This document shows, in pieces, positions 10,132-50,147 of a stretch of 64,000 nucleotides of DNA. The notes beneath the pieces were generated by a model. The model ran no database searches, was not told where the DNA came from, and was given only the letters and a program-made list of their open reading frames with translations. How positions within the stretch are numbered: position 1 is the stretch's first letter; each line of letters opens with the position of its first letter. This DNA comes from Nemertoderma westbladi (lineage: Eukaryota > Animalia > Xenacoelomorpha): assembly GCA_032718475.1 (NCBI GenBank), contig JAUCBJ010008352.1, positions 1 to 64,000 of the forward strand, in the 5' to 3' direction. The position numbers and the translations under genes are program-made.

Positions 10132-12392
10132 TGTTGTGTCCTCTACGGTAGGAACTACCCTACAGCCTACAAATCTACAAATACGAAGCTATAGAATATC
10201 TCTATCCGTAAAGTCCAGTAGTATTCCGCTTACCAGATCCTAGTAACGATGTATCTTACTGTAAGACTCTAGTAATGAAACGGGCTCGTACAGTATCTGA
10301 CAACAAATCCCAGTCCAGGATATCTAAACAAACAGATACAATACACAAACTACTACTGGCGAGGAGCAGAGCCTGGTGTCTATTCTATGTACGTGGGCGG
10401 ATCTAATGCCTACGTACTAGACAAAAGGATACCTGTCCTCTAACCGGTATGGCAGATGTACAGTTACAGTAACATACCAAACTCACGGGAAAACAATCCC
10501 CGCGCAGCAAATCCTAACTATCGCTGACAGTCCTAAATACAGTAACTTGCCGCGGTGTGATTTATATGGTTTATATACGAGCTAGGTGGGTTGCAGACCT
10601 AGTGTAACAATACTGATCCCCCTGTCTGAATCAGCCTAAAAGAGGTCGTACCTAAATGTAACAATAACTGATCCCCCTGTACGAAATCAGTCTAAAAGGT
10701 CGGGCCTAAATGTAACAATACTGCTGCGCAGAAAAACAACAGTTTAATAACGAATATGAAATACTCCTTCTTGCCGTAACTAAATATCTGATCCTAATTT
10801 ACAAATACAGATAAATTCTGCCTAAATCTAAATTGCGCCATCTAGTAGGAACTCTAAGGGTAAATATGTTTTAGGGCGTGTGTGTGTGGGTGGGTTACAA
10901 TAAAACAATTTTGGTGTATATCATTTACTAGGTTTTAGTAATTCTCTGACCGAAATAATACCGTGTGCTAGCTACTAAAATAAGCTAGTCGCGTTTTGTA
11001 GAGCTTTATACTTACAAATGACGTCAAAGCTCTCTCCTTCCTATCCACAACTCAACTGGGCAACCACGGTGTTAGTAACTACACCCGTGATCGGCACAAA
11101 TACCAGATTCTGGTTGTAAGATAAGAAATAGGGGTTAATTGCTACCGTACGTTAGCTGATCTGGTATACAAATTTGATTCTAGAACTTTGTTGCTGCGGT
11201 AGTTAGCAGCAATACCTATCAGTACATGGCAAGGCGCGGTAGGATATTAATAAAACCTCCCTAGGCCAAGCGGTGTGCCGGTAGCAGAAATACTCCTTGC
11301 CTGATCAAATAACTAACTTCAGGCGGGGGTAGGGTACTAATGTATGCTCTACAAAGCGAACCGGTACCAAACAGTCAGTACTACGAATCACTAAATTATG
11401 GAACATATGCTGTCCGTACCTAATGTGTACTCGCGTACTGACGAATGGCAATAATTCGCACCTGTGAGGTATACAGGCAACCCAGGGGTTCGTACTACTG
11501 ACAAGGGGGGGGGGGGGGGGGGGTTCTGCCAAAATATAGTTATTTGATCCTAAATTTGCGGCGTCCAAGGACGGCGTCACGCTTACCCTTATCTATAGGT
11601 CTTACGTCGGGCAAGGGCGTCAAACAAAGTCTTACCTTCCTCATAAAGCGGGCGCTGCATGTCAAGTGGAGCATTTCGAAGGGCGAAGGGGGTGCGCGGT
11701 CTAATCTAATGTGGGCGCTAGCGTGTTGTGGACATCCTTTCCCTGCGTTGCTGACGGCCTAACGGTCTAGGCGGCCAACTTCCTGATGCTTTGCTGTCCC
11801 AAAGTTGGACAAATGCAGAAAAACATGTTCAGAAGTTTATAGTATATTTACAGTTTACAAAACTTTATCAAACAGAATTGCCAAATAGTTTCAACAAGAA
11901 ACATAATAAACTGAATGAATCAAGTTTAACAAGAGTAGTGAACTGTAAGTTGTACTAACTAAGAATGGTGTAGAGTGATAACCGAAGGCAAACCAGCCCT
12001 TTATATACTAAATCTGGGACATAGAATCTACTAGAACTTTCTAGAGTATTCCATGGCCTCACATTGGAGCAATAAGATATTCCATGCCCTATGATTGGCC
12101 TAACTCATTGTTCCATGTGTTGTACGCACCTCATTGGTTTGTCAAATTGTATGAAATGAAAATAAATTGCCCCAAAATGCAAATTTCCCGACTGGGATTC
12201 GAACTCGTAACCTATGTAATGCAACCAACGCCTTAACCATCTGACCACTACACCACGAGATTAACTAGGGGTTTTATGTGTACTGATATGAGTAGGCATA
12301 TTACATTACTGTAACTTAATCAAAATGCGTCGGATTTTCGAAAGTTTTTACGTTATACTACAAATGCTATCCTATAGTGAAATAATTCATCA
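10132..12392 (-). repeat. 3' LTR of element A (2261 bp)
   Basis: 10507-12392 matches 28066-29950 with scattered substitutions; preceded on the minus strand by the purine-rich tract GGAGCGG. Confidence 0.88.
12185..12258 (-). other. tRNA-like (A box / B box) segment inside the LTR; second copy at 29744-29817
   Basis: Minus strand reads GTGGTGTAGTGGTCAGATGGTTAAGGCG...GAGTTCGAATCCCAGTCGGG; no clean cloverleaf. Confidence 0.55.
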
Positions 12393-13321
12393 CCGCTCCA
12401 TGAAAACAGTAAGTAAGACTGTTTTCACCAATCGAAATACAAAACTATTTACAAATACTTCTAAATCTACTGGTAGGGCCTAAAATATAAAATAATCACT
12501 ATCTAATTATTGCATACTTAATATTGCAGGTACGGCGTAAATATAATCCATCATACTTACAAAATACAAATTTACCAATCAACTTTAGTGCATAAAATAC
12601 AAAAAAAGGCTTTCGGTTATCGAGATAAACAAATTAAACAAATCAGAACGAAATAAATCAAAACGAATCGAACAAATAATTTCAAATCTTTCAACAAGTT
12701 TTATATATTGTAAATACACATAATAAACTTCCACCAAATTAAATCAGTCCGAAATATAAAATAAACATAATGCGCTAAAATCTTTCAAATAAGTCTTAAA
12801 GTGTCCTCCTGACGATCTCAATAGTTCGTCCTGCTGGTCTGGATGTCTTCTCCTGAGCACTAATTGCTACCGGTAAGCTCGCAAGCCTTCCTTCTCTATC
12901 TCACTCCTCCAAACTCAACGTTCGATATAGTCGCTTTCGTCCTTCTGGGCTCCTCCCGGAGGCGCACCCACGAGGCGGACGTGTTTCCACCACCCCTGGG
13001 GCCAGTCTGACTGATGTTATTATCAGACCGGGCAGGAGGGTGGCCCGATGCTTCCCGGGTTCTGTTTTCGGTCCCCAGATCACACCAGCACAGCTCGTCG
13101 AACGTGTAGCCAGATGGTCGGCTACTGTCAACTTACTGTGGCCTGACTGTACATTGAGCCAACTCAAAGAGTCAACCGGCAGGTGGACCAGTCGATAGCG
13201 ATCGAGCACCAAGGTCGCCCTTGGTCCTAACCGACGGTCTTGTCCCAAGCGGGCTTGCGCTACCCAACATTGGAATTTTGACTCGTTTTCACCTGCCTCG
13301 CCGGCAGTATTGAGGGGAAAT

Positions 13322-14108
13322 AAGTTCCGCAAACAATACTGACTAGCTCGAAAGCTAGGAACAAGTAACCACTTACCAGTCACTGTACACGTGTACTCAA
13401 CAGATGTTCACAAAATCAAGTACACAACGGTAAGCACAAAATCGAACACATACCATGCACATACAGAGGACATAATCGGGAAAGACAAAATCGGGGTCAA
13501 TTCAGAGGGGAGCAATTGTATCGACCAACAGGCTAATCGAGAGTACCTTATTTTGCAATCAGGGCAAAATAACTTTGTGTGCACAAAGTATGCTGGGGCG
13601 CAGTAGAGATATGGTCCTACTAATACCAGCGGCGTCTGGACCAACTGGCAAGGGTTCCCATACTCACTCACAGTGGCCACACATACAATCACGTGTACTC
13701 ACGTACCCACAGCAACAGAAAGCTCAAAGACCCAAACAAATCCCAAAGACCAATCAGCTGAACATGGAGACCATAACATATAGTATCAAAAAAACGGAAC
13801 AGCTGATGGTCAGTGGAACCCATCCAAGCCCCAAGCAAACTGCCACTGATCGCCCACATACAAAACATAGTTCACGCCACATGAACCACAAATCATGCCA
13901 TGCCACCACCCCTACTGTGTACAGGACTGGCAGTATGGCAACAGGCCGACTAGACGGTACCACGGCACCATGGCAATTCATGGTTCGTTAGACACGAGGG
14001 CCTTCAGTGACACCCTAGGACTATATTATAATTTAACGTGCCCCCAGACTCTCACGAGTCCGCCGCCGCCTGCTTAGGACACCCCTATAGAGACCTCACC
14101 TCTTTAGG
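13322..14108 (-). repeat. Segment shared with element B (about 44148-45059), possibly decayed gag C-terminus
   Basis: Long near-identical blocks, e.g. aagttccgcaaacaatactgactagctcgaaagctag and cacccctatagagacctcacctctttagg, at both places. Confidence 0.85.
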
Positions 14109-14204
14109 CATCCCAATATAAATCCCAAATATAAATCCCAAATATAATGTCCAATACAAACATCCAAATCGGTAGGCTCGCAAGCCTTCCTTCTTTTCTC
14201 TTTC

Positions 14205-17200
14205 CTATTCCTTGGCCGAACGGGCTCGTCCACATCCTCTAGTACGACTGGGTGGTGGTCGAGATTGAACTGGACTCGGACTTCGGTGTCGAGTTGCCGG
14301 TGGTTCCAAAACGCTAGGAAAGGGGACGACGGGAGTCTCGCACATCCGTCGTGCGCTCAGTCCTCTAAATCCTCGTCCGATTCCAACTGTCGGCTTAACA
14401 TCGGATCGAGTTTCTACAATGCTGGGAGGAAGTCGAAAGGGTGGGACCGTTCCGTCCGTTGACACCTCGCTCTCTGACGTCGTTTGAATCCTAATGGGTT
14501 CCGGCAAAGCGTATCCTGTCCCTCCGCGTGGTTCTCTAGCAAGGGAAACCGTGCCCCGAGTCATCCGGATTTGTGACTTCGATGTCGTGCTCTCGGCGAC
14601 ATTTACTACTTTCTTTATCTCTTGTCCAGCCTTTTGGGCTCTGAGTATACGAAGTTGCGGATCATCCTGTGGGTGACGCGTCTTTTCAGCTAACGGCGTG
14701 GCCTTGAAGCCAGTCTCACGCAAAACGTCGGTCTCGTCTAGAATGCACGAGGTTACGCGTTTGTGATAAAATGCGCTCCTGTATGCCCAAGCTATCGAAT
14801 GCCAGGCTCCTCGATTCCGCTGTTCAACTCGCAATTTGTCGAATTCCCCGGCGGTAATCTTGTTCACCACAGTTTGAAAGTTCCAAGTATTCTTGTTGTC
14901 GGGGTGTACCTGTATAAAGTAGTCCCGCACAACTTTAAATCCGCTATCCAGTGGCAATATATCCAGCACCTCCAAAAGTTCGTCGTATTGAGGCATAGCC
15001 GACACGTATCCTTCCTTCGACATTATGAGAGGGTTTACGGCCCAAAATCCTAAGTGTGCTCTCATAGGGAAACGGCGTCGCTGCGTTGATACATGCTCGT
15101 CTGCTAGATTCTCCCAATGGTCGAATAGCTGTCGAACGATTTTAACTGACATATGCTCATAGGGAACGTCTCTAAGTTGACATACGGACGCCCTATGGCC
15201 TTTAATATTACAATACGTGCACTGCGCCATGAAACGCCAGCAAGTGTAGAAAGTGTGCGAATGCTGATCCCCGCACCAGTTGTATACCAAGTCCGGTAGA
15301 GATATGTGTTTCGCTCCGCATTTCTTTGCGTGGTGGCCAGTTGCCCCGCATCTGCCACAAATAGTGTTGGCAGGGTACCAAACTCGCTCATAGATAAGAT
15401 CTCTGATGGGGCGAGCGCTACCGTCCACATGATAATTCTCATCATCCGGGTCAGTCAGTATGTTCGTCTCCGTGGGTTGTACTCAAACCATGGCATCGCT
15501 TTTCTCCAACTCGCGTATCTCAGTTCGCGTCTTCCTCGGAAGATTCTCCTCTATTTCTATGAGTTGCCGCAACGGTTCGTCTATTAGCGCCAACTCGGTC
15601 GGATCCACATCGTCGTGATGGGCGGTAGGCTCGTGAGCCTTCCAGGATCCTTCCGGGCCTTCGAATTCCGCGTGGCGTTCCCCGTCATAGGGTACTAACG
15701 TTAACATCAACGGTCTGTCGACTAGGCTTCCCGCGTGAGTGAGATAGACGTCCCTGAAAACGCTAAGTCCCGCTCGCGTGAAAACTTCGCAGTGCGCATC
15801 GGTGTTATAAAAGGGTTGAAGAAATCGTCGGAATACATCAGTATGCGTCCTTCCTCCATCGTAAAAGGTATGTCCTTCACCGAGACATAACGGATGTCGC
15901 ATTAGATTCCTAGACACAACATCGGCGATGAAGCAGACGTTGACCGAAGATTCTATCGCCAAGTAGTATTGTAAGATTATTCGCGGAGGTGAAGTAATCG
16001 CCCAGTACACGCAACCTCGCCACTTTAGCTGTGACTCGAACTCGTTTACGTCGGGAGTGTCTCCCTCTCCGTATACATCCGTGTATTTGCTCTTCTTACT
16101 CTCCTTATAATCCCAACTGAACATTAGATATGAGATATAACCCGTCCCAGTTTTTAGCGTGTTATACTCCCTAAAGTATCCTTGCTCGATAGCCCAAAGC
16201 AACAATGGTCTAGTATCCACGTACGGCGTAGGCAATCGATCCTCTTCCGTGGGCATCCCTGCAAAGTCGCTAATAAGGTCATCCCGTACACCGGATCCGA
16301 TCTTGACGATGCTTTTGTCTAACACAACGTCTCGCATGGCCTTTGGCAACATCCTAGCTTCTATGCTACAAGCCAGGTCCATGGATTTAACTATCCGTTT
16401 TATCATCGCGTGTCTTTGCGTCGTTCCTTCCGGCATAGGCATCTTTCTATCGCTTCTTTGTCGGCTGAAGACATGTAACACGCCATCTGGTGCTCTAATC
16501 TGTATAGTCTTCGAAGTGAGGCTTTGCTGGTGGCTTCCTCCTTCATTATCGTAAAACATGTAACCATTCTCCTTCAGAGATCGGCTAGTCACGTCCCAAT
16601 CGTCGAGTAAATCGTCGGTAGGGTTCCAAATTCTCCCAATCGACTTTTCATCATCGAAACTAATAGGTTTACCGGTCTAATTGGTCGCGATGTCGGTGTC
16701 GGTCTCAAATGTCCCGACTCCGATCCATAATCGAATCGTTCTTGTCAGATATCCTCGCAAGATACAAGGTACGATATCCGTCCCTGCGCGATCCACTTCC
16801 TTAAAGTCCGTAATATGTGGAGGCACGTTGCGTACGATTTTCTGAACTATTGTTCTACGCAACTCGGCTGACTCTAACACATCACCATAGGTAACCGATG
16901 GGAGGAAATCCAGGTTCGAAATGATCTCCGGGTGTTCAACTATAGGGATCTCGTAAGTTGTCTCCTTCCGGGTCGGTATACTAATAGGAAAACTAGTTGG
17001 TCTCGCAACCGGTACTATCGTTCCAGCAGAATGGGGTTGAGGTTCTCGTGTCATCTTGACATGAGGTATCTGTAGTCTCTGCGACAAACGCTGAGCAAAG
17101 GTGATACTATCGAAGAGCTCGGGTGTCATCTCCTTAGGTTCGGTTTGATCGTGGGATATCCAATAGAATGGTAGGTTTCCCTTTCTCGTACGCCTTGTAC

Positions 17201-17961
17201 GCCCTGTAGAGGCTCAAAGCTTCCCGTTTCTCTTGCGTCGACTTGTTAGATTCGTCCACTACCATGCTGTAGACATCTGGTTCGACTAATTTAGGTTCGT
17301 AAATAACAATCTCACCCGCGTTCGGTCCACTCATTTTAAATGAATGATACGGATTCGTCAAAGGGTATCCGCCTTCTTGGTAACGTAGACTTTGGTGGTA
17401 TGAGCATCGCGCTAATATCGGCTCGGGGTTCTCCGAGTTCAACCGCATAGGAATCGCGTTGTCTTGCTCGCGCATACATGCTCCACATTTATAAAACAGT
17501 TTGTATATGGAGAACGCGTCCTTTGCCTCTGGATCCGCTCCTCGAGCGCGTCTATAAAGATGCATTCCTTCAAATTCGTCTCTGGCTGCAGGTAAGGGTT
17601 CATTTACCATCAAATATTGCAGCATATGATATAATCGGCGTATTTCGGTGTCTGGATCCTCACAAATGTCACTAGCGTCGCATAACGCGTCGTAAGGATA
17701 TAACGCATTGAACACCGCGCGTAATTCCTCCGTTCTTTTGTTATAAGCGTCCAATCGCTGTCGCGTAACATTCGGGTCAGCCTTGGATTTAGCGAGCTTG
17801 GCTGTACTCCTAGCCATACTCTCCACTCCAAACACACTAAAGTTTTTAGCTCCATAACGATTAAACGGCGCCTGGTGCTCTTGTTCCTGCGTAAACCCTT
17901 GATGTAACTCCTTATAAATCTTCTCCGCCATCATATACGCGTATATATGGTTACATATCAT
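14205..17961 (-). pseudogene. Accessory gene of element A: Cys/His motif, DEDDy-like 3'-5' exonuclease and three zinc knuckles (~1250 aa when repaired)
   Basis: ORFs 17129-16677, 16592-15483 and 15428-14205 share one frame and are separated by single stops; one frameshift joins 17961-17134. Motifs: FYDNEG, IVKIGSGVRDDL, YVDT, YLAIE; CGRCGATGHHAKKC, WCGDQHSHTFYTC, CTYCNIKGHRASVC. Confidence 0.7.
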
Positions 17962-18673
17962 TACGTTTCTACTAGATGAAGCACAAAATAGAGGTTAGAT
18001 GTGAGGTGACTTAGAGTTTGTCGGCTTTTGGCTCAACTTTGCTCTAAAACCCCAACCCATTTGCCTAATGACTTCGGGTTTGCGTGATTTCGCACTGGCT
18101 CCTAATCCAAAAAAATGTGCCAATAAAAAACGAATTCCGGATAAACTAGCCGCGAGTCTAAAATACTCACCTTTTAATTTCCCAAACTACATTCCCAAAG
18201 AAATAATGCAGTCGAGAATTAATTTGGTCTAAATAATAGTAGACACGACTACGTAGAACAAGGCCGATTTTCTTTTTCCAAAAAAAATTTATTTATCGGT
18301 AGGCTCGCAAGCCTTCCATCGCTCTTGTCCTCCCAAATTTTAATTTTTATCTAGCTGTATTCTAGAATTCGCATTCACTGGAGAATCATTTTTCTTAAAT
18401 TTAAATCCAACTAAATGGATTTGTCTAATAATTTTTGAAAAATTGTCTCACTTGTGGGTTCCAAGTGGAATTCCATTCCTACTGTACACACAATCCCGCT
18501 CCTATGTGATACATAAGGGTACTACCCTCCATGTTCACATATAAAGACAATGGAATTCCACCGCTGTCTCTATCTACAGTGAAGAGGATTACAAATGCAC
18601 ATACAGTAATACAAAATACTAAATTACTAAAATACGGTAAGTCTATGTGGCGGCCATCAAGGGTCCCACATTT

Positions 18674-21600
18674 CTATTTACTAATATTGGGTGGAGATTT
18701 GTAGTCTCCTGTCTCGTTTCTAGTCTCCTCAAGGAGCACGAGACATTGTACAGGTCTGTCTACGGTACGACCGTCGATAGTCCTTACAGTAACTGTCCTT
18801 ACTACACCAGATGTAGGGTGCGTGGTCAAAATGACTCCAGTCAGCCAAAACCGTCTTTTCAGATTGGCTTCAGCCAATAAAACGTGGTCACCGTGTCTCA
18901 AACATCGGGTATTAAGATACCAAGAGGTTCTGGTTGAAATAGAGGGCAAATAATATTTCTGCCATATTTCCCAGAATTTATTTACAAGCAATTGAGTGAT
19001 TTTCCAAGCTTTGTTGCCGTATCCGTCGCTATTAACGGGTACCGAAATGGGCAACAATGTCGTCGGCGCCTGCATAAGCAGGTGCGCTGGTGTCAAGGCA
19101 AACTGTGCGTCGTTATTGTCTGGGATCAAAGCGATCGGTCTAGTGTTCAAAATCGCTTCGATTTCTATTAACAACGTCGTCAGTTGGTTGTCTGTCAAAA
19201 TGTGTTGCGTCGGTATTACTTTAGCCATAGCTGTCTTGATTGAGCCAATCAGCCTTTCCCAAACGCCGCCTCTCCACGGACTGTCTGGAGTATTGAAATT
19301 CCAAACAATTCGGTGAGGACGTAGTTCCTCGGAAATCTGGTTTTGGTCCAACTTTCTCAAAGCTCTGGTTATTTCGTTCCGTGCACCCACAAAGTTTGTC
19401 CCTTGGTCGCAATAAATGGATTTGACCAATCCACGTCTAGCGATAAATCGCCATAAGGCTAGGATAAAGGCATTGGTGGTCAAATCTGTCACACGCTCTA
19501 TATGGACAGCTCTGCTGGCCATGCAAGTGAAGATCAATCCCCAACATTTTACCTGTACCCTTCAGCGTTTCGCGATTATGGGTCCAAAACAGTCTATCCC
19601 TGTCTCAGTGAAAGGGGGTCTAAATGCCTGTAATCTCACTAGTGGTAGTTCAATCATTTCTTGGTGTCCTATCCTCGCGTGCACCTTCTTACAAATCATA
19701 CAGTTCCGTGTTACCGAACTCAGTGCCTTGCTAGGTCTAATCAGTACAAACCTCGATCGTAAGTGTGATAGACAGTGGTGTCTACCCACGTGTTTGAGTT
19801 GTACATGTGCGTCCAGTATCATAGCGCGCTGTAATTCATGGTGTTGCGGTATGATGATAGGATACCTAAAGTCAAGTGCTGGACTTGTGACAAAGTAAGC
19901 CCCGGTAAATAATCGGACTCCAACTCAAAATCGGTGAAGACTTAATCTGTTTACCTTGGTTGATCGCTGTGAACTCTCGTGCGAAATATCGCAATTGATA
20001 ATGGCGAATGATATCAACTTCACAATGACCAACTTCCCTTAAGGTAAGTCTTCTATGAAAGTCGCGTTTGCCTCTGGCATATTGTCTCAAACGTTTGAGC
20101 CATGCTAACTTGCGGCACGCGTCAGTCCATGATCTAGTTAGGTTTACTATCCTGTCAACGTAAGTGTTAGTGACGTCATCAGGTAAGGTATAGTCATAGT
20201 GTGGATACTTGTCTGGACTTGGTAGGCCCACGGGCCTTCCGGTAGGTTTGTCTGAGTCCCCAAGTATGTCAATCTCCACGGTCTTACCTTTACCGTCCGC
20301 ACCTAATGTGTCGACTGGCAGTAACGGTTTCAACTCTACAGTACCAGTGAGTTCCTGTGAGCCTGTAAACTTCCTAACCTTAGTCACACGTTTACCTGTA
20401 GGTGGTAAGTCAAGTACCTTCTTTGAGCGGAGTGTGATCGCTGTGGCCACACCTTTGTCGTCCAAAGAAGTCAAATTTGGTAAGTCTCTAAAAGTCCGCT
20501 CCAATGGGTCTTCTAGTGGAGTGTCTAGTAGACAGTCTGGTTAAGCGTCCGGTGAACATCTGGCGAGATGTCTGGTGAAACATAGCGCGGAAATGTCCTG
20601 TCGTTGGTCCCAAAGAAAATCTGGCGTAACTTCTGTCAGAAAGTCTGGTCCAAAGTCTGGTGGACAGTCTGTCGAAATGTCTGGTGGAAAGTCTGGTGAG
20701 ACGTCCGGTAGACATTCTGTCGAGAGTTCCATCAAACAGTCTGGCGAACCATCCGGAGAACAATCTGGTGTCGCTTCTGGTGAATAATCTGGCGAATAAT
20801 CTGGTGAACAATCCGGCGAAACGTCTGGTGAAATCTCCCGCGGAACATCCGGTGAAAGATTTGTACAAGCGTCTGGTCGAGTGTCTGGTGAGACGTCTGG
20901 CGTAATGTCAGGTCTGGCGTCCAGGTCATCGGATTTCGTCCGTCCTTGTTTCCTCTTGACCTTGGCGTTGGCTTTCGCTTTGGACTTGACAACCTTGTCG
21001 ATTTTTATCTCGGCACCCTCTGGTATGGTGTTGGTTGTCGCGTCGAATAACGGTGGCCATTCGTCTGATGGTCGCTGTAGGAAATCGGGTCCTCTAAACC
21101 AAAAGGATTTATTGTCCGGTTTACAAAAGTCAAGCGGTTGCATCCCCCGTGACGCGATGTCAGCTAGGTTCAGCTTCCCTGGACAGTGACGCCAATCTTG
21201 TTTGAGCGACCGGTCTAATATTTCAGCCCATCTGTTGGCTACGAAAGTCTTGAACTCAAATGCTTCGTTGTTTATGTACCAAAGTACCAACGTCGCATCC
21301 GTCCAATATGTGACCTTCAAGTTAGCCTCCAGCTCGCGTTGAACTAGACTGACAATATCGGTGGATATCGTCCCGGCTTGCAGCTCTCCACGAGGTACAG
21401 TCATATACTTCAACGGCATTGTTCTAGCCCTAGAAGTAACGAAAGACACATCGTAGCTGTCCGATGTCACTTGTCGTCTAAGGTATAAGGTAACCCCCAA
21501 TCCATCCTTGCTAGCGTCACTAAAGCTGTGAAGCTCTAAATCGGCAGGAAAGGTGGTCTGCAAAGGAAAGTATACCCTCGGTATTGTATAGTCTTGTAGG

Positions 21601-24356
21601 AACGTCAGTTGGGCTTCCCAGTCCCTCCATTGCTCAGCTAACTTTTCTGGGATGGGATCGTCCCATTCCAGTCCGGCTTGCCAAATGCTGCGGAGTATGA
21701 TCCTAGCATGTAGGATCACTGGACTAATGAAACACAATGGGTCATACAATCGACTCATGGTCGATAAGCAAGTCCTCTTAGTGAGAGGTCTAGTCTGGTC
21801 ATTGGACCTTACACGTACCCTAAAATTGTCGGTGTTAGGGTCCCAACTAAGTCCTAATACTTTGGTCGTCGGCAGAGGTTCTAGGTCTAAGTCCAAGTCA
21901 CCTCCGCTACGATCCATCGGGTCAAATGAGTTCACTAGTTCAGGCTCATTGGAAGCGAACTTCGTAAGGCGGAATCTTCCCTCAGCGAGACAATCCTGGA
22001 GTTGGTGTGCTACGGTTGTAGCGCGCTCCAAAGTGTCACAACTTTTGAGGCCATCATCCACGTAGAAATCTCGTTCCACTGTCAGAACTACTTCTGGGTC
22101 AAATTGGTCTCGTCTGTCCAATGCGGTTTGCTTTAAGGCGTACATGGTGCAGTTGGGGCTGTCCCTGGCTCCAAATACTCTTACCTGCATTTGGTAAGTT
22201 TCTGGCGGAAGTTCTAAATTTCCGTCCGGATACCAAAGAAACCTCAAGCTGTCCCTGTCCCGCTCCAAAGCCTTAACCTGGTGAAACATGGCCTCTACGT
22301 CATAGGTGAAAGCCACTTTGCGTTGTCTAAAACGCATTAGGACTCCCATGAGGTAATTGTTCATATTCGGTCCGTCCATCAATTCACTGTTCATAGACAT
22401 CCCTTGGTAAAGCGCGGTGCAGTCGTTGACTACACGCACCTTGCCAGGTTTGTCCGGGTGTCGAACAAAATGATGTGGCAGGTAATATGTCTGGTTTGTG
22501 GTTACCTCGGGATTTAACATCCTAATGGCGTATCCCTTTTGGAGATACGTCTGAAGTTGCGCATTGTATTGCATATGGGCCGTCTCGTCTCGCAACAATC
22601 GCTGCCTTATTGATTTGAGTCGCCTCAAAGCAAGCGGGTAATTGTTAACGAGCTTAGGTTGTCCATTGCGCCACAACATACCAACCTCATAGTGACCATT
22701 CGCGGTCTGGCGAATGGTATCTCTCATAATATTTAATGACCGTTTTTCCTGTTCTGACATAGCGGTCTCGTAACTACCGGGTTCTGCTGAGTCCTGTTCC
22801 AACCATTGAATGGTCCGTTCAGTCAGCAGTCGGTCAAGCGCTGCTTGCACTGTGCCATGGTCCTCGTCCACATCTTCGTCCGCTGCGGTGGCTAGTGTCA
22901 ATGCGTCTGGTAGGCTCGCAAGCCTTCCGGTGTCACTAGTCGGCGTCGAATCGTCGTGCGGCGGTTTGACAACTTCTTGATCTATCGGTAGGCTCGCAAG
23001 CCTTCCAAGATCAACGACCGGTGTCGAAGCCCGGTGGGTGGGGTCAATGACCTTTGGATTTTTCGGTAGGCTCGCAAGCCTTCCAAAATCCTCGTTCATC
23101 GAGTCATCCACAGCAACAACCCTTTGGTCTTCGGTAGTCAATACAACCTGGTGTACTGCAAGTAGTTGTAAGTCAGAGGTCCGTGTGGTCGTGTCCAGAT
23201 CAGTTATGTTAGTATCGGTGGCGTCTGCATTAGCGACGCAAGTCTGTCGTAGTGCCGTCCGTACAATTGGACCACGGGAGTGTGAAGGAGAGTTATCTAT
23301 CGTAGTAGTCAATAAACTACATGTACTCAAAACGTCGTCCTCCTGGTCACTTACCTCTAGTGAACGTATTGGTGCTCTAGTATACCAAACTATGGGAGTT
23401 CTACATGCGTAGGGATTGCCCGCTGTAATAACAGATGGGCGTGTCTCCCATACCTGATGTAAGTTAAACTGGTCTGTCCCAATTAACATCGCAATGGAAC
23501 GATAATTAACAGGACATTCCGGTATTCCAAGATGTCGGAAATACTTACGATCTTCCGGTGATTGCTCTGGCACAGGGCCAAGCAAGTTACTAAAGTCCTT
23601 CGTAGCTGCAAAGGTTAAATTTCTTACCGGAAGTAATGAGCGCTCCTCCTTGCTGTGTTCCGCTTTGGAAAGAAGAGTGTCTAAGGTTAGTTTCACTCTT
23701 GTCACAGGGATCGCTCTCTTACCATGCATGCTGCTTACAGTATACTGAGCAGTCTTACCTTGACTCATGTCCGTAACCACGTCGGCTACTTGTTCGTCGA
23801 CATAACTGTGTGATGAAGCAGAGTCTAAGATAGCGTATATACGCTTGCTCCCTCGGGTTCCGGTAATCTTTATAGGAATCACGCTAAACCCTTTCAATTG
23901 GTTCTGTGTGAGGAGCGTTACCGATGGTTGTTCCTCACCCGCATGCACATAGAAAGTGTCGTCTTCCTCCTCGTCCTCGTCCGATGATCCTGACTGATCC
24001 ATACAGTCCGTATAAAACGTACGGATCTCGCGCGGCGCATGCTCCTTGTATAGTGCGTCGCATCTAGCCGCTTTATCTGGATGCTCTTGTCGAAAGCGTC
24101 TGGTCGGAGTATGACTAGTAGTGTGAAGTAACGCGTCATGGTTACGTCCACACAGAGGACATGTATCGTCGCTCGGGCAATCCTTCCTGATGTGTCCTGG
24201 CTTCGTACATCTCCAGCAAGAATCTAAAGATCGGATTTGGAGTCTCCTCTCCTCGATTCCTAACTCTTTAAAAGCGCGACATCCACAAAGTTTATGTCCG
24301 CTATGGTTTCTGCCATTCCGCTCGCAATATGAGCATCCCACAAAGTCCGCTGGCAA
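18674..24356 (-). pseudogene. pol: BEL/Pao gag-pol C-terminal part: CCHC knuckles, aspartic protease, RT, RNase H (Pao peptidase A17 region), integrase
   Basis: CWRCTKPGHIRKDC, AILDSASSHSY, YYLPHHFV, DVEAMFHQV, FYVDDGL, HSFSDAS, YWTDATLVL, HVGRHH..CMIC, TGIDCFGP, YCDQGTNFVG, WRGGVWERLI. Broken by frameshifts near 20520, 19870 and 19560. Confidence 0.95.
20505..20920 (-). repeat. 12-bp (PDxS) coding tandem repeat between RNase H and integrase
   Basis: PDVSPDCSPDYSPDYSPEATPDCSPDGSPDC in the 1271-aa ORF. Confidence 0.85.
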
Positions 24357-26578
24357 CTGTTGTCGTGGCTGCGTGGTGCCGATAGGCGTCAGAACTTTAG
24401 AAGTCTCAGTAGGGGTGGCGTAGGTAACGGCTTTCGCGTTCGTCGGAAACGGTTTAGTCCGAGTCGGCGCAGAAATAGCTATCCCTTCTGCCGCGATATG
24501 ATGATCGGTATAATTCGATCGAGTCTCGATAATGGCCTCCCGCGAAATCAGTTGATAGACGTCGGTGAGTTTTAATAGCCCGCCGGCCTCTTCACGCTGG
24601 TACTGGATGCGTCGCCATTCTCGTCGAAGTCGATGATGAAGTCGACCGATTATCCTGATGAGAACCGTTGGTGCGTTAGTGTACTCGAGTTGTCCAATGG
24701 ACCGTAAAGTCCCTATAACATTTTTTATTTCGTCCGCGAGTCATAGAAGATCGATCGGTTTCGAAATGCTGCCTCCTCTACAGAGGTCTTCGATAATGGA
24801 TTTAGCCATGGCGACGTTACCGCCGTAAATCGAATACAAACGGTCGTACGCCAACTCAAAGGCATCGGGAACACCAATAAAGGTTTCCGCTAATCGTTTC
24901 GGCTCACCAGACAGGACTAGGAGCAAGTAATTAAACTTCTCCGTCGAGGTGAAAGCACACTTAGCGATCTGGGACTCTACGTAGTCTACCAGTGTGCGCC
25001 AGTGTTTCGCGTTGCCAGAGAACTTTGGCGGTTGCTGTGCCAGTAATCCGTGTCTAGCCACGAATTTCGCAATCTCGCTAACCAAATCCAACTGTCCGCG
25101 TCCCTGTTCGGTGGCGTCGTCCAGTCGTTCCCTTCCGCACGTTGTTCGTCGGTAGGAATTATTAACGGGATCTTCTTCTCGATGTGTCGGAGTCTGTCTA
25201 GTCTCCTGTTCTCGCCTTGGTGGTCGATGTTGTCTAGGTTGTTCTAACTCCACGCTGGTTCGTGATCGATCCGATGGTTGCGCTTCAAGTCGTTCTTCGA
25301 GTTGAGCTAGTCGGTCCGTCATCTCGGCGAACTGTTTGGCGCTGATCGTTTCCGCTGGTTGCAACGTGGGTTTCTGCTGGGGTGTTTCTCGTGGAGGATT
25401 GTCGATGTAGGGGTTCGTCGATCATTCCTCTCGTTTGTAATCCGCTGCCGCTGCCGCTCCAGTACGGAATATTTCCCGTTCCGTCGACTCCGAGTCACTG
25501 GATGAGTCGCTGTCGTCCGGATAAGGTGGCTGGCGGGTTCGCGTCCGGCGTATTACCTTTTGTCTCACTCGTTGGGGTCCAGAATCTATGGTTCTCCGTC
25601 ATTCGGTAGGCTCACAAGCCTTCCACGAAGTCGTAGGTCTCGTTAAACGTTGTTCGATCCCGTGGGTACTACCCACATCCATCCTCCTCCGTTGTTCGGC
25701 AGGCTCGCAAGCCTTCCACGAAGTCGTAGGTTGCGTCGAACATTGTGTCAAAGGTCGAGTAAAGTAGTCGGGTTTCGTAGTCGGTCTATAAATAACTGGG
25801 TTCGCACAGCACGTCACAGGTTTAACTACTAACGGCTTACTTACCTGTTTAATTGTCATAAACGCAGGTTCCTCTCTTCCTACAAGTAGACTACGACTTA
25901 CTGTAGGTGGACTAGTTACGTTACCTGCTAAAATTGGCGATGAAGTCGCCCTAGGTTGTGGTATTTCCGTCACAACAAACCTGCTACCTTGCGTCGAGCG
26001 CACAGGTGTTATTTCCTTAGGTTTCGTAACAAAGACCAGTTTTATCGGAGTCGTGGGTTTGAGCATAGGAATAACTTGGGGAAAACGTTTACAGTAATCC
26101 TCGACGAACTCCTCTCCTCGATCTATCGCTCCCACACTTCCTTCCTCGATTCGCTTCTGAATTCCGCGATATCGAGTTTCCATGCGATCCAGGGCAGACA
26201 AGTCGTGTCCAGCTCGCAATCTTATAGATCTATCTCTCGCGTCGAGTTCAAGGTCCGCTTGCGCATTCGCTGCCTCGCGCGATCTACGATTTAGTTCGAA
26301 CTGTAGTTGCATCTCCCTTTCACGTCGATCCGCTACTTGTTGTTGTGCCGCTAACTCCGCGTCCTGTATAGCTAAACGTGATTTTATTTGCCGTGCCTCC
26401 AACTGAGCACGTGCGTCAGATGCCTCTTTCTGTCGTGCTAAGTCCTCCTCTAATCTTCTCATCTCCGAGGCTTCGACTTCGGCTTGCGCCTTGATTTGCG
26501 CAATTCTCGTCTCGTCTTCTCTACGTTGTTTCTCTCCCTCGATGGCGATCTGTGCCATCCGACGTTGTGCTTCTTCAC
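24357..26578 (-). pseudogene. gag: BEL/Pao gag (coiled coil plus DUF1759-type capsid region), 5'-truncated
   Basis: PPKFSGNAKHW...EKFNYLLLVLSGEPKRL...AYDRLYSIYG; N-terminal E/R/Q-rich coil. Confidence 0.85.
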
Positions 26579-28064
26579 AAATCTTCACAAAATCAGGTTT
26601 TGAGAAATTTACCCACACCACCAATCAATCAAAGAAAGGGGGACAGTACGTGTTCACCCCTTTTAATCTCCCCCCCCCCCCCCCCAACCCTTCCCAACCA
26701 CCAATACATAACCGCGACATCTACCACCCACGGAAGGGTAGCACGAACTTATTTCCAATCGCACTTTAAATATGCAAAGCCAGGTGGTTTATAGGAATAT
26801 AATAAACGCAGTACTCGTTTTCATTATAAGCCTCTTTGCGTTCGTCCTGTTTTGTATTTAAGTATATTTCTTAAACGCAGGCTAGGTTATAATAATAATA
26901 ACTAGGGATGCGATCAATATGTGAAGCCAGGTGGTTTATTTAATAATATAGTCAACGCAGTTCTCGTCTTCTTTATATGCCTCGTTGCGCTCGTCGCTTG
27001 TCCTGTTTTGTCATAAAATATTTTTCCTAAACGCAGACTGACGATCTTTATACAGTTATAACTATGCGAAGTTTCGAAACTGTGCGAGTAACTGTTGATA
27101 CATCTATGTGGAGATGTGTGATATGTGGAGATGTGTGATACAACGCCAACGCATCTTATGCCGATGTAGTAATATGGGCATTGAAATAATATTAAATCAA
27201 TGTACACTCTTAAAGCTGCAGCGAAAAAATGTAGCTAATTTCCTAGGTTACATATAAAATAATAATATTATTTTTAAGAACATTAATTTTACTACTTTGC
27301 AAAAATTCAATTAAAAAATAACCAGACATATACATTGTGGAATAAACTATTTCAGAAGAACTATTTCAGCCATGCCATGGATTGTATTTATGTTATTATA
27401 TCTGTCATTTACCTGTGATAGCAATACAACACTTATAGTAGAGTCAATAGTCAATTCCTCTCTGGTTAGTCTACAGCCACAACTCCCAGCAAGCTCCACA
27501 CCAGCAGAGACTTGACCAATAATCATTCCCAGCACCTGGCTGCCTTAACACACATCCTTCCATCTATGTACCAGCATGTTGGCCAATAAATGAGCAGTAT
27601 TTAATGAGAATCAATTTTTTACACAGTTTTAATTACTTTAGATCAATTAAAGACACAATTATTAAAGCAAATCACTTGAACTAATTAAAAACTATAATAG
27701 AATGGCGCATGTGGATTACATCTGTATAATTTTTAAGTATAATTATTTAAATCTTATACTGTAAAACAATTAATTTCCTTTAAAAGGCAGGTTGAAAATG
27801 GTGTTTTTACCGTAATCAACTTAATTAACTAATTAACTGCTATTATCTTAGCTTCTCGAAGGCCACACGGAAATTCTACTTGGAAAATTTCTAAACTTTT
27901 GCCAAACAACATGTGTACCAAGTTTGGATAGATTTCATCAAAGATTGGCCGAGTTATTAACGTTTAAAATTGAACGCGACAGAACGACAGAACGACAGAA
28001 CGACAGAACGACAGGTTGATTAATGGTACCACTACGCTAAGGCTCACTCACTTTGTGAAGATTT
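26579..28064. mobile_element. Non-autonomous DNA element (Helentron/DINE-like or MITE) replacing the LTR-gag junction of element A
   Basis: 13-bp inverted ends AAATCTTCACAAA / TTTGTGAAGATTT, a (GACAGAAC)n microsatellite, an ...aataactcggcc...aaacttggtacacat core, and an internal ~150-bp duplication. Confidence 0.5.
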
Positions 28065-28065
28065 T

Positions 28066-29950
28066 GCGAATCCTAACTATCACTGACAGTCCTAAATACA
28101 GTAACTTGCCGCGGTGTGATTTATATGGTTTATATACGAGCTAGGTGGGTTGCAGACCTAGTGTAACAATACTGATCCCCCTGTCTGAATCAGCCTAAAA
28201 GAGGTCGTACCTAAATGTAACAATAACTGATCCCCCTGTACGAAATCAGTCTAAAAGGTCGGGCCTAAATGTAACAATACTGCTGCGCAGAAAAACAACA
28301 GTTTAATAACGAAGATGAAATACTCCTTCTTGCTGTAACTAAATATCTGATCCTAATTTACAAATACAGATAAATTCTGCCTAAATCTAAATTGCGCTAT
28401 CTAGTAGGAACTCTAAGGGAAATATGTTTTAGGGCGTGTGTGTGGGTGTGTTACAATAAAACAATTTTGGTGTATATCATTTACTAGGTTTTAGTAATTC
28501 TCTGACCGAAATAATACCGTACGCTAGCTACTAAAATAAGCTAGTCGCGTTTGGTAGAGCTTTATACTTACAAATGACGTCAAAGCTCTCTCCTTCCTAT
28601 CCACAACTCAACTGGGCAACCACGGTGTTAGTAACTACACCCGTGATCGGCACAAATACCAGATTCTGGTTGTAAGATAAGAAATAGGGGTTAATTGCTT
28701 CCGTACGTTAGCTGATCTGGTATACAAATTTGATTCTAGAACTTTGTTGCTGCGGTAGTTAGCAGCAATACCTATCAGTACGTGGCAAGGCGCAGTAGGA
28801 TATTAATAAAACCTCCCTAGGCCAAGCGGTGTGCCGGTAGCAGAAATACTCCTTACCTGATCAAATAACTAACTTCAGGCGGGGGTAGGGTACTAATGTA
28901 TGCTCTACAAAGCGAACCGGTACCAAACAGTCAGTACTACGAATCACTAAATTATGGAACATATGCTGTCCGTACCTAATGTGTACTCGCGTACTGACGA
29001 ATGGCAATAATTCGCACCTGTGAGGTATACAGGCAACCCAGGGGTTCGTACTACTGACAAGGGGGGGGGGGGGGGGGGGGGTTCTGCCAAAATATAGTTA
29101 TTTGATCCTAAATTTGCGGCGTCCCAGGACGGCGTCACGCTTACCCTGATCTATAGGTCTTACGTCAGGCAAGGGCGTCAAACAAACTCTTACCTTCCTC
29201 ATAAAGCGGGCGCTGCATGGCAAGTGGAGCATTTCGAAGGGTGAAGGGGGTGCGCGGTCTAATCTAATGTGGGCGCTAGCGTGTTGTGGACATCCTTTCC
29301 CTGCGTTGCTGACGGCCTAACGGTCTAGGCGGCCATCTTCCTGATGCTTTGCTGTCCCAAAGTTGGACAAATGCAGAAAAACATGTTCAGAAGTTTATAG
29401 TATATTTACAGTTTACAAAACTTTATCAAACAGAATTGCCAAATAGTTTCAACAAGAAACATAATAAACTGAATGAATCAAGTTTAACAAGAGTAGTGAA
29501 CTGTAAGTTGTACTAACTAAGAATGGTGTAGAGTGATAACCGAAGGCAAACCAGCCCTTTATATACTAAATCTGGGACATAGAATCTACTAGAACTTTCT
29601 AGAGTATTCCATGGCCTCACATTGGAGCAATAAGATATTCCATGCCCTATGATTGGCCTAACTCATCGTTCCATGTGTTGTACGCACCTCATTGGTTTGT
29701 CAAATTGTATGAAATGAAAATAAATTGCCCCAAAATGCAAATTTCCCGACTGGGATTCGAACTCGTAACCTATGTAATGCAACCAACGCCTTAACCATCT
29801 GACCACTACGCCACGAGATTAACTAGGGGTTTTATGTGTACTGATATGAGTAGGCATATTACATTACTGTAACTTAATCAAAATGCGTCGGATTTTCGAA
29901 AGTTTTTACATTATACTACAAATGCTATCCTATAGTGAAATAATTCATCA
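28066..29950 (-). repeat. 5' LTR of element A, truncated at its inner end
   Basis: Direct repeat of 10507-12392; the counterpart of 10132-10506 and the PBS are missing. Confidence 0.9.
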
Positions 29951-37556: not shown

Positions 37557-38690
37557 TGTTCGCGCTTTTAGACCTTTAGCAGTTTAACCTGCCAATTTTA
37601 GTTGTCTTCTTGTTTATAAATCGACTTTAGCCTAGGACAATTATTTAGTGTACTGAAGTTACATCCGCCAAAGCCAGTCTGTGCGCGATAATTCACCCAC
37701 AGTTAAGGGAGACTGGATTCGGGTGCTTTGAAGTTATTGCGGCACAGACCTACTGTATTATTCGATTGATCGTTAATGTATAATATCTGACAAATATATT
37801 TACTTTCGGGGAAATATTAATAGTTCCTTTAGGACGTGGCGCTTTAAGTATAAAAACAGAGTTATGACTTATACTAATCACAACTAGAAGGCTATAGAGT
37901 TTCGTAAATAGCGCATTCTTTAGGAGATGCTTTATTATCTGTTAAACTACTTCACACGACTTCCCACTACTTCACACTACTGCACACTGATCTGCCGACC
38001 GTCACTGAACTTGATCATATATAAGGAAGATTGCAACGGACACTTATAGGGATTATGAAATAGCATTTAATTCACACAAAAACCACTATAATGTAAGTTG
38101 CAGTTGCTACCGGTAACCTGTTCCTCTCACCTTCAGTAATCAAGAAGATTGGGGGTTTTATGATTATTCATCGGTATTATCCAAATATATCAGCAATATA
38201 CATCCATATAACAACAATTAATAATAGAAGTAAAATAATGCGGTGAACAATCAGTATGTGTTACGTAATGCAAAGACCGTAAGTTAAATGCAGTTTTTGC
38301 AGTGTAGTTCTTCAGGTAGTTCTTCAGGTAATAGATTTACGTTCCTATAATCAAAGCCTTCAGATGTTCTTAGGCCAAAGTCTGAAACTTCCAAAACAGA
38401 AGTAACAGAAGATTTCAAGCCGGTTCTTAGGCTCAGAAAGGTAAACAAAGACCGTAATGCATTGCGCGGTTTTCCATAGGCCTCTGTACAACATAAAATG
38501 AAAATCGCTCTGATTGGCCGAATTAGGCAGAACAAAGAAAAGTTCCACGTTTACAGGAAATCAGCTGACAGATTTCGTCATCTGAGCTCCATCTTTTAGA
38601 GTATTATGCGCATTGCGACAAAAATGACTTGTTATGTCCGCAAAAGCACCTACACTGCGCATTGAGGGGAAAAATGAAAAAGCTTTTACA
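37557..38690 (-). repeat. 3' LTR of element B
   Basis: Bounded by the TSD and the purine tract; only 38101-38690 is repeated at the other end. Confidence 0.7.
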
Positions 38691-39121
38691 CCGCTCCCAG
38701 AAAATGGGATTTAAGTCTATAAAATATAAAAAATCACAGTTTCTAAAATACAAAAATACTCTAAACAATTAGTCCTTCTTACATGAACGGCGTTTATGAA
38801 GTTTTTTGAGGCTAGCAAGAGTCCTTTTCTCTTTGGGGCGAGCCACTTTACTAGGAGGGCTATAACTCCTGGGTGAGGGGTGCAATACAATTGCATCGGA
38901 AGGTTTCGGATTGCGGTCGGTGTATCCGCCGGTCGAGGTACCCGGTTGATCGATATCCACCTCAGTGGAACGAGGTCGAACAACCTTTAGAGCGCGTTTT
39001 AAGACAGCAGCTCTTACTGGTCCCTGACGAGTCGTTTGCACGAGAGCGGTAGGTGGACCGTGAGTAGTGAGAAACTTCCTCGGTTTGATGTTCTTTCTAA
39101 CTCGCGTTCTCGGGCTCTATA

Positions 39122-42100
39122 TTAATAGGGTCGTCTATGAACTTCCTGCAGTTCTGGATGTGAGTTGATGAACAAGTCACCATATTCCGGGTCTTGACGA
39201 ATGAAGTTGATCAAGTTATAGGAATTAAGGTCATTAGGATTGATGTTCCTGAGATACTTGCGAACAAATTTGGTCGAAATATTCTCGCCAACACGCTTCA
39301 TTAGCTCGTAGCTCGGTGTACGAGATTTTTGCTCAACGGAAGCAAAGAGATACGGGTGAAACGCATAAACTCCTTCATAGGCACGTCCAGGGTAGTATCG
39401 ATGACGTGACTCACAATGGAGATCCGCGTTAGCTTCCCAGGCTCGAATGTAGCGCAGGGCAACCATTTCATCTACGCTTTCCAGATCTCGGTTGAAAGGG
39501 AAATCAAAACTTGCGTGTCCTTTAAACTGGCAATGATGGCATTGAGTCATAAATTGAGGGCAGACTGCGAAGATGTGTAAGTTATTGAGTCTACAATACG
39601 CACAATAGATCTCCATTGTGGGTTGATCTTGAAAGTAGGAGCAGGGTACGCTGGAGTCCACCGGGGTGAAATGGTCTCTCGATGCGCATAATTGGCAACG
39701 TTTCCTAGAAACATAGTTGACATGCCGATAATCGTATGCGGTGAGACATTGTGGACCTTGATACCATTCCAGGATGTAGTCGTTGTCATTGCTCGTGGGT
39801 GCTGTGGGTTGAATCTCCTCGGACTCTAAGCAAATTGGTTCGTCTTCCAATTGCATAGCTGAGATAGGTATAGCTGTCTTCTCAAGCGAACCCACTGTTT
39901 GAACTTCCACGATAGAATAACCTGTGGGGATTCGGGGTCTTTGTATAACAGAGGAATGTAAATTCTGTATACAAACGTCCTTGAAAATGGCGAATCCAGC
40001 GCTGTCTAACTTCTCAGCAGCTGAGTCTCTTAGGCTGAGCTTAGTCAGAGCGCGGTCCTTGAACTGACTATCAACGTTACGGAACGGAGTCAGAAAGCGC
40101 CTAAAGCATTCGAAGCGGATGAATTTATTGTGTTCATCTAGCTTGGCGAGTTTGGTTCCAAGTAACAAGGGATGGGCGCGTATAGTACGACTGCACACAT
40201 CGGCTAGCCAACCGGCAAGTGCGGCGTTCTCGAAGATAGTGTATATAGCTAATGAGGGACGAAGTGGAACACTCATGAAGCTATAAACGACGCCAGGTGC
40301 GGTCAATGGTCCGTCGAAGTATAATCGAGAATAATGATCTCCATATACTTGTTGATAGTTGATAGGGTTTCCGACTTTGAAATTCCATCCGTATTCTTGA
40401 AAGGCAAGATGTCCAATGGAGGTTCGTTGTACTTTAGTGATGCCGCTGGATGTATTGGCATACATAGTGCGGAAGAAACCTCGGCCTTCTGCCCAGGGAG
40501 CAATCAGCTGGGTATCTACGAAAGGATATGGAATATTCTCCATGTTCCTGAAATCATTCTGGAGATCTCCATAAACAGCTGAGCCGATTTTAAGGATTCT
40601 TTCGTTAAACAACATCTCGAGCACTGGCTGGGTTAACATCGATCCATCTATACCCATGGCCGGTTTGCGCTCGGTATCGGTGACGTAACGCTGTGCGAGT
40701 TCGAATTGTCCATGTCGGAGTTTCTTTTGGATCTCGGTGAGGGTCTCAAAAGAATAATCGATCACGTCGGAACACGCTCGGGTAAACACATGGGTAGAAC
40801 CAGCTAATCCACGTATGTGTATCATTCGCGTAGTTCCCAGTTCTCCAACCGGAACGCTACCTTCGTTATCGTAAGTGACAACTCTATACATTTCGATAAC
40901 TTTAAGAGTTTTGTTCAGTCTTTGGTGGCATTTTCTATGGTCATACCCACCGGATGCCATAAGGTGGCGCGTTCGCTAGCATTAGGTAGATCGCTATACT
41001 TCAGATAATGTGTAGTATACGTCTCTACATCTCCATATCGCTGTATTCTCTCTTCCTCGAATAATACGTCGAGATTCCAATGGACTAATCGAGTTTTAAT
41101 AAATCCATCGAGATTATATGGTGGAATTATATCCTTTTCTATTCTAGAAACATTATAAGGTTTTCTGAATGAGTTTACTTTCACTAACTGATCCAGATGT
41201 TTCTGTAGTTGTTCGAGTTCAACAAGATCGAGGGGATTTAGCAGTGGTAGAAACCTCAAACTGTGTGTAGGATCTTCCGGTTTCACCATATAATATTGAG
41301 TTAGATTGACATAATAAGGATGGTCTTTGATCCCATAAAATGAGTTCGGTAAAGGTCTAGCGCGTAGGTTGACCTCGTGTACCATACGACGGACAAGATC
41401 CACTCGATTGTCCAGAGGTTCAATGAGTATACCGTCGACACGAGCGGCCTCGATTGGTGGACGTTGTAACATAGGTGCGTCAGCGATAAGATCTCGAGAT
41501 CTTAGGTTGATATCAACTGGTTGGGGTTGTACCGTGGCGAAGAGTTTGTCTCCGAAATGGGGAAACATCGAGGGATGAATGATGGTTTTAGAATAGAGAT
41601 CAGTCATAAGGATTTGAGCTTCTGGTTGGGCTAAAGCTGCTTCTTCTCTCTCGTCTATTTCGATGTGCTTCTCCTCGAGCTGATTTTCCTCCGCTTGTCG
41701 TTGGAAGTGTTCGTCCAAAAACTCTTGCAGAGAATAGGTTCGCCCAAGTTCGATGTCTTCCTCGAGGTTCTGCATTTCTCGATCAAACTGGGGTAAGGCC
41801 AATTCCTTTACTGCTTGGACTTGCTGCTGCAATTTATGTTTATCTAAACAATCGTAAATTCCTTTTCCGATCTTTTGCCGAATAGCATCTAACGCGTTTC
41901 GTACAACGCTCTCCTCGACTTCGGTGACGGGTTGTATCGGGGTTAAACCGGGACGATTATACGGGTTGAACAGAGATATTAAATGTCCGCGTCCCAATCC
42001 GGCTAGGTAGAATGGGTGAATATCTAGAGAGCCCACTACTGGAGTGCCACCGATTAATTGTTTGGGTAACACTAGATCTTTGAACAGTGAGTACAGTTCG

Positions 42101-50108: not shown

Positions 50109-50147
50109 CAATATACAATATTTCTCAATCGAAATAATACTAAGTCA

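Follow-up and report, generated by a model that had tools for sequence, protein, structure and literature searches.

Exonuclease-like third open reading frames (ORFs) have been described in retroelements of bdelloid rotifers, where ORF3s of the RNase D-like DEDDy type, in which the motif reads DEED, are carried by the long terminal repeat (LTR) elements Juno and Vesta and by the Athena/Terminon retroelements (Rodriguez et al. 2017, PMC5408684; the account is repeated in PMC5718144, PMC6431247, and PMC6338049). As stated in the available text of PMC5408684, with reference to Malik et al. 2000, DEDDy exonucleases had previously been unreported in retrotransposons. The BEL/Pao elements (Belpaoviridae), which have been described from animals only, are 4.2-10 kb in size, with LTRs of 0.2-1.2 kb (PMC8742986). 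The 64,000-nucleotide stretch of DNA from Nemertoderma westbladi analyzed here (contig JAUCBJ010008352.1; hereinafter the window, to which all coordinates refer) contains two LTR-bounded elements with BEL/Pao features, A and B, each of which carries an extra gene (Table 1). A possible, still tentative reading of this gene is that it encodes a protein in which a likely RNase D/WRN-type 3'-5' exoribonuclease is combined with three zinc knuckles of the nucleocapsid kind, and that it is an accessory gene kept by selection, the role of which would most likely be to blunt small-RNA silencing by the host.

In both elements, the extra gene (~3.8-4.2 kb, sense strand) is located just inside the 3' LTR, so that it sits between pol (A) or gag (B) and the 3' LTR in two families. 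The gene of A consists of the open pieces 17994-17134, 17213-16677, 16676-15483, and 15482-14205, which are separated by one frame change and two in-frame stops, and that of B consists of 43035-42496, 42495-40915, and 40975-39122, separated by one stop and one frame change. The stops and frameshifts fall at different places in the two copies, as noted in the initial annotation of this DNA; its estimate of an ancestral ORF of ~1250-1300 amino acids agrees with copy A, whereas the span of B may be nearer to 1,400 codons than to 1,300. The C-terminus of each protein appears to be a basic tail. The possibility that the gene is an envelope (env) gene was considered and rejected because hydropathy analysis shows no signal or transmembrane segment: a hydrophobic segment is absent in 7/7 gene pieces (the best 19-residue hydropathy is 0.46-1.48), in line with the earlier remark that env features are lacking.

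The extra genes of A and B have no match to each other at the DNA level (blastn), and the peptides quoted in the initial annotation are present in the sequence where it placed them. The proteins align by tblastn in three collinear blocks (E values apply to the window only), namely, an N-terminal block (29% identity over 103 amino acids, E 3e-7), an exonuclease block (30% over 323 amino acids, E 1e-29), and a knuckle block (25% over 181 amino acids, E 1e-13). The claims that DNA similarity is lacking and that the proteins align in order are thus upheld, the latter for these blocks but neither for most of the N-terminal halves, which do not align, nor for the DIVPCIL/DIIPPYN pair, which yields no significant match alone (no blastp match at E<=0.1).

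The only match of the combined A+B profile among 1.84 billion representative proteins (E 3e-5) is P0001, an unnamed, intact singleton of 648 amino acids from a 9.4-kb contig of the European Nucleotide Archive (ENA). This protein consists of a nuclease-like domain, a low-complexity linker, and three complete CCHC knuckles, and its pairwise similarity to the exonuclease domain of B is significant (29% over 150 amino acids, E 1e-12). Word-based protein searches yielded no relatives for the B piece (0/7,994 and 0/4,286 candidates) and P0001 only, among 7,995, for the three-row alignment; locus scans of metagenome contigs and viral contigs found none. P0001 resembles the window genes in the combination of the exonuclease domain with three knuckles and in the Y-x3-E motif, but differs from them in being intact, half as long, and devoid of the long N-terminal part; its N-terminal helix resembles the LYHML...EPLP block of A by eye, with no blastp match.

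Several lines of sequence evidence indicate that the domain shared by these three proteins very probably belongs to the DEDDy (RNase D/WRN) type. The B domain matches the NCBIfam RNase D model TIGR01388 (E 0.0015 over 47 residues, far under the curated cut-off). An hhalign comparison of the A+B profile with a profile built from 79 RNase D domains of enterobacteria gives a score of 37.7, above all 100 column shuffles (maximum 20.4), and the A+B+P0001 profile scores 44.1 versus a shuffled maximum of 22.5. Atlas queries for both copies place PF01612 clusters first (0.88 and 0.89, under the 0.9 line, so that these are leads only), P0001 shows a weak match to PF01612 (E 0.2), and EXD2 and RNase D are among 9 weak PDB sequence matches (E 0.84 and 1.8). 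With regard to the motifs, the D-x-E of Exo I follows a hydrophobic strand in 3/3 sequences (YDNE in A, YDNE in B, and IDVE in P0001); Exo II includes a Lys and, eight residues on, an Asp that hhalign aligns to the Asp of RNase D; and Exo III includes Pro, then Leu/Pro, and a Tyr eight residues after the Pro. For Exo II and Exo III, all three sequences can be lined up with RNase D with no gaps, and none of the three has lost any of the five candidate catalytic positions, at 23-34% identity. It is improbable that the domain is not a DEDDy nuclease and that the motifs are a chance likeness in an orphan fold: the lack of a significant Pfam or PDB sequence match, the Atlas scores under 0.9, and the low-confidence predicted folds would be compatible with such a coincidence, but the five partly independent lines, i.e., NCBIfam, hhalign with shuffles, Atlas for both copies, PF01612 in P0001, and the weak PDB matches to EXD2 and RNase D, agree with each other.

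A series of observations nevertheless weighs against a functional exonuclease of this type. The TIGR01388 match of B spans only the Exo II region, the A domain alone has no NCBIfam match, neither domain has a Pfam match at E<=10, and PDB sequence searches identify no significant exonuclease match. Exo I rests on motif reading, given that it lies outside the region aligned by hhalign and that its alignment with P0001 by MAFFT was not clean, and it is followed in A and B by an insertion of 22-35 residues. The last metal ligand is Glu (Y-x3-E) in 3/3 sequences, in place of the Asp of the strict Y-x3-D pattern, so that the Exo I-III motifs described in the initial annotation are retained for D-x-E and the Asp of Exo II but not for Exo III; furthermore, hhalign favors another register of Exo III, with the Tyr ~15 residues upstream and no acidic ligand, and a full-text literature search found no paper on a DEDDy enzyme with a DEDE site. 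The predicted folds are of low confidence (predicted local distance difference test, pLDDT, 31.0 and 37.5); with these models, Foldseek gives 0 matches at E<=0.001 (the top row, EXD2 with E 1.6, was not counted), and VIA-align gives a best Z of 4.1, with helix fragments only. Finally, both window copies of the gene are broken. Downstream of the core, there is a conserved block of 90 residues; an HRDC domain is not detected there by Pfam, and comparison with a narrow RNase D HRDC profile gives a probability of 0.2%. A search of PHROGs produced no meaningful match. Taken with these points, the domain still appears more apt to be catalytically active than inactive, and the gene product would, at best, work like a DEDDy enzyme rather than be a canonical member of the group.

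The cluster of three zinc knuckles, which was recognized in the initial annotation, is confirmed as such, but the full set of four ligands is present in only 2/3 knuckles of A and 1/3 of B, compared to 3/3 in P0001. Those of P0001 are similar to HIV-1 nucleocapsid (E 1e-4) and show a weak match to Air2 (E 0.06). Elsewhere in the window, a 269-codon open stretch (62342-63151, minus strand), with 35-bp tandem repeats upstream (63649-64000), ends in the same three-knuckle module (36% identity to P0001 over 55 amino acids) and contains no exonuclease; it may represent a third relative that has undergone deletion and is truncated by the end of the window. Egalitarian and EXD1 are examples of RNA-binding adaptors with DEDD domains. 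By analogy, a catalytically weak or dead DEDD domain could serve as an adaptor that exports, localizes, or protects the genomic RNA of the element. The three knuckles with the basic tail, the Glu in place of the last Asp, and the alternative register without an acid all fit such an adaptor, and there is a precedent in CERV, a spliced accessory protein of the nematode LTR element Cer1 that is needed for export of genomic RNA (PMC10309623). Conservation of the five candidate catalytic positions in all three sequences at this level of divergence is, however, beyond the expectation for a dead site, which makes this explanation rather unlikely.

Comparison of 295 aligned codons of the exonuclease block shows A-B identity of 0.54, 0.54, and 0.28 at codon positions 1, 2, and 3, respectively, and only 5 of the 33 fourfold sites at identical residues match. 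The saturation of silent sites along with retention of the protein indicates that selection has kept the extra gene. In each of four public DNA runs, which stem from no more than 3 samples under one species label (the best of which may be the window's own sample), both elements are covered in 30/30 bins. In run X1, 29,593 and 91,341 contigs align to the two elements (contig depth was not taken as copy number), and some run contigs show ~20% divergence across the blocks of the exonuclease and the knuckles. A and B are multi-copy families with related subfamilies. The listed 40 of 2,029 and 40 of 1,811 differences from the run contigs include 37 in the extra genes, of which 34 were classed by their shares in run X1 after exclusion of 3 at break points. 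Within this small, tool-selected sample, 12/14 differences shared by part of the copies are silent versus 6/20 of those private to the window copy (Fisher p 0.002 among the listed differences), a pattern that fits purifying selection in active lineages followed by decay after insertion. Passive capture of a host gene of no benefit to the element would be compatible with the broken state of both window copies, but given the same position of the gene in two families whose gag proteins are 27% alike, the saturated silent sites, and the mostly silent shared differences, it is very improbable.

Element A is assigned to BEL/Pao based on the gag-pol domains (PF03564, DUF1759; PF05380, Peptidase_A17, E 1e-39; PF17921, integrase zinc finger; PF18701, DUF5641) and on the motif order of pol, protease-reverse transcriptase (RT)-RNase H-integrase (PR-RT-RH-IN). 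It is inserted in a 30-bp repeat array of an element resembling a long interspersed nuclear element (LINE), with the array present on both flanks. The LTRs differ at 23 of the 1,883 aligned bases (1.2%), which points to a young insertion. The 5' LTR lacks the inner 375 bp, and both this end of the LTR and the primer-binding site have either been lost or replaced by other repeats; no primer-binding site for tRNA-Arg/Gly is seen in A, in the region replaced by these repeats. Contig depth is high at 26675-28008, near the inner end of this LTR. A 7-base purine-rich run ahead of the 3' LTR is common to A and B. In A pol, a run of 12-bp repeats (20488-20907, minus strand; PDxS-like peptides) is inserted between RNase H and integrase, and a motif of ~20-30 bases occurs at least 7 times along the element, with copies within gag and pol as well as flanking the extra gene on either side (including 12868-12908, 14168-14206, 18288-18323, 22909-23085, and 25603-25718); one possibility is that this motif is an RNA signal involved in packaging, splicing, or the binding of a protein.

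At 19.8 kb and with LTRs of ~2.26 kb, A is outside the described range of Belpaoviridae, which is a typical size range and not a criterion of descent, and the initial description of an unusually long element of ~20 kb is borne out. This length brings up the possibility that the nuclease is active and helps replication by trimming or proofreading the 3' ends of the element RNA or complementary DNA (cDNA), e.g., in primer removal or strand transfer, and so aids the copying of a long genome. ExoN provides comparable proofreading help for large RNA viruses, and nucleocapsid protein, which the knuckles resemble, is a chaperone of reverse transcription. The size of A compared to the family range (PMC8742986) speaks for such a function, and 3'-end processing was the role first proposed for the rotifer ORFs (PMC5408684). 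Nevertheless, in the absence of a fusion to gag or pol, the gene product has no obvious route into the particle, and the length of A is partly that of the extra gene itself, the long LTRs, and nested repeats; a replication helper accordingly appears doubtful.

Element B is assigned to BEL/Pao on the strength of gag, and the window ORF list and Pfam searches reveal no pol ORF in this copy. No matching pair of target duplications is found, an A-like 3' segment (44149-45059) occupies the place expected for pol and abuts the truncated end of gag, and contig depth over this segment falls to A-like levels, so that this copy of B is probably a recombinant or chimera. On the plus strand, the segment common to A and B resembles a Thr/His/Cys-rich frame with stops and no Pfam match, perhaps a decayed antisense ORF. 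An insert resembling a short interspersed nuclear element (SINE), flanked by a 14-bp target duplication, is present just inside the 5' LTR of B (49837-50122). The initial view of two separate BEL/Pao LTR elements is therefore sound for A, whereas B, at 12.6 kb, has a BEL-type gag but neither pol nor a matching target duplication. The linkage of a conserved, element-encoded gene to BEL/Pao LTR elements, which was part of the same view, is supported by the gag and pol domains, the LTRs, and the collinear protein blocks.

The position of the extra gene 0.7-1.1 kb behind the preceding segment suggests that it would be made from its own messenger RNA (mRNA), either spliced or internally started; a scan with one simple, crude splice acceptor pattern gives no match upstream of either gene. 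Within the encoded protein, the knuckles would grip single-stranded RNA, and 3'-end trimming of the RNA would be carried out by the acidic residues through bound metal, with Glu substituting for the last Asp. A stand-alone, basic-tailed protein might find its substrates, small-RNA precursors or guides that target the element, outside the particle. The free-standing gene without an evident particle route, the basic tails, and the DEDD relatives in small-RNA pathways (Mut-7, EXD1, and Maelstrom link DEDD domains to these pathways, PMC5408684) are the reasons for favoring counter-silencing as the main role, a plausible proposal that falls short of being probable; in the available text of the same source, the rotifer DEDDy ORF3 shows no clear link to copy number, which weighs against it. 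A stronger version, in which a giant, high-copy BEL/Pao lineage has the envelope slot occupied by an active DEDE exoribonuclease with three knuckles that destroys host precursors of PIWI-interacting RNA (piRNA) or small interfering RNA (siRNA), seems unlikely. If true, it would amount to an enzymatic, retrotransposon-encoded suppressor of animal small-RNA silencing, in which one protein would be the counterpart of a nuclease plus an Air2-like RNA adaptor.

Table 1. Features of elements A and B in the 64,000-nucleotide window
Feature	Coordinates	Strand	Remarks
Element A, LTR retrotransposon	10132..29950	-	19,819 bp; 5-bp target duplication, GATGT on both sides; TG...CA ends
A 3' LTR	10132..12392	-	~2.26 kb; stretch 10132-10506 inferred from target duplication only
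A/B common segment	13322..14108 in A, 44149-45059 in B	-	87-88% identity
A extra gene	14205..17961	-	~1,250 codons, four open pieces
A three-knuckle CCHC cluster	15180..15359	-	Middle knuckle without first Cys; followed by conserved helical block and basic Pro/Ser-rich tail
A DEDDy-like core	15951..16565	-	D 16550, E 16544, D 16280, Y 15965, E 15953 (positions of codon starts, minus strand)
A conserved N-terminal block	17365..17667	-	Helix LYHML...EPLP, then Cys/His residues; tblastn match to B 42528-42253
A gag-pol, broken	18674..26624	-	DUF1759 gag, CCHC, protease, RT (YVDD), RNase H, integrase
A 5' LTR	28066..29950	-	98.5% identity to 10507-12392
Element B, LTR-bounded, no pol	38092..50714	-	12.6 kb
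B 3' LTR	38092..38690	-	0.6 kb; 9 mismatches in 559 aligned bases versus 50141-50714
Basic 115-codon stretch, other frame	38769..39116	-	Probably tail of B gene; overlooked in the initial annotation
B extra gene	39122..43020	-	Three open pieces
B three-knuckle cluster	39482..39697	-	Two knuckles degenerate
B DEDDy-like core	40229..40885	-	D 40870, E 40864, D 40567, Y 40243, E 40231; TIGR01388 match
B gag remnant, BEL-type	45036..48153	-	PF03564, E 3e-12; ends before knuckles
B 5' LTR	50141..50714	-	Pairs with 38092..38690

Other mobile elements are present in the window. The LINE-like element interrupted by A (3871-10131 and 29951-30591, minus strand) contains a region of 10-residue repeats ahead of the endonuclease and RT, as well as weak matches to SAP (E 0.08) and Ulp1/C48 peptidase (E 0.09) in the same part. 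An intact LINE ORF2 of 1,119 codons (54596-57955, plus strand) comprises a Cys-rich N-terminus, an endonuclease, and an RT. An integrase-core ORF (914-1870, minus strand; PF24764, E 7e-31) is located beside 21-bp repeats that recur at 2624-3211 and 30687-31022.

Compared to cellular DEDDy enzymes, i.e., RNase D (TIGR01388), WRN, EXD2, and Mut-7 (PF01612), the extra gene product shows the same Exo I D-x-E and the same spacing of Exo II (K-x7-D-L) and Exo III (P-L-x6-Y), but it has Y-x3-E instead of Y-x3-D, an insertion after Exo I, a zinc-knuckle cluster, and no detected HRDC, and it scores below all curated cut-offs. The Belpaoviridae with an env-like third ORF (Roo, Tas, Atlas, and elements with a Chuviridae-like glycoprotein; PMC8742986, PMC13524379) carry an extra sense ORF in the same position; the gene described here differs in the absence of a hydrophobic segment (best hydropathy 1.48) and in the enzyme-like motifs, and element A is twice the described size range. 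The word "exonuclease" is absent from the ICTV profile of Belpaoviridae (PMC8742986) and from the main text, as available, of PMC3118150, PMC2774666, PMC13524379, and the Atlas-virus preprint (10.1101/2021.11.23.469668). The full-text literature search, which did not extend to subscription papers, supplements, Repbase, and GyDB and in which the slashed term "BEL/Pao" is unsearchable, found no report of the BEL/Pao host, the triple knuckle, the size, or the DEDE site. The remark in the initial annotation that no such gene was known for BEL/Pao thus holds within this scope, but DEDDy third ORFs of LTR elements are already known from rotifers (PMC5408684).

A DEDDy cargo under purifying selection in BEL/Pao would imply that such genes are not peculiar to rotifers and have been acquired repeatedly in different LTR lineages, with a bearing on how animal retrotransposons counter small-RNA defense. 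It would also double the described size of BEL/Pao elements and add an orphan family of nucleases whose fourth ligand is unusual, and the unbroken domains, together with the intact relative P0001, make the role testable in vitro. An exonuclease-like ORF has reportedly been drawn for a nematode Cer element in Malik et al. 2000 or related work, with about even odds that this is so. The closest described counterpart is the rotifer DEDDy ORF3, and the extra gene may be likened to it by description, with no implication of membership in that group. Like ORF3 of Juno and Vesta, the gene of element A forms an ORF of its own, downstream of pol and ahead of the 3' LTR; in both cases, transmembrane or coiled-coil env features are lacking, the catalytic residues are largely kept, and the function is only predicted. 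The available text of PMC5408684 names no zinc-knuckle fusion for the rotifer ORF3, whereas the gene described here resides in a BEL/Pao host and encodes a protein of ~1,250-1,400 amino acids with a long N-terminal part and three CCHC knuckles, and the DEED site of the rotifer proteins corresponds here to D-E-D-E, in which the third acid is Asp and the fourth is Glu.

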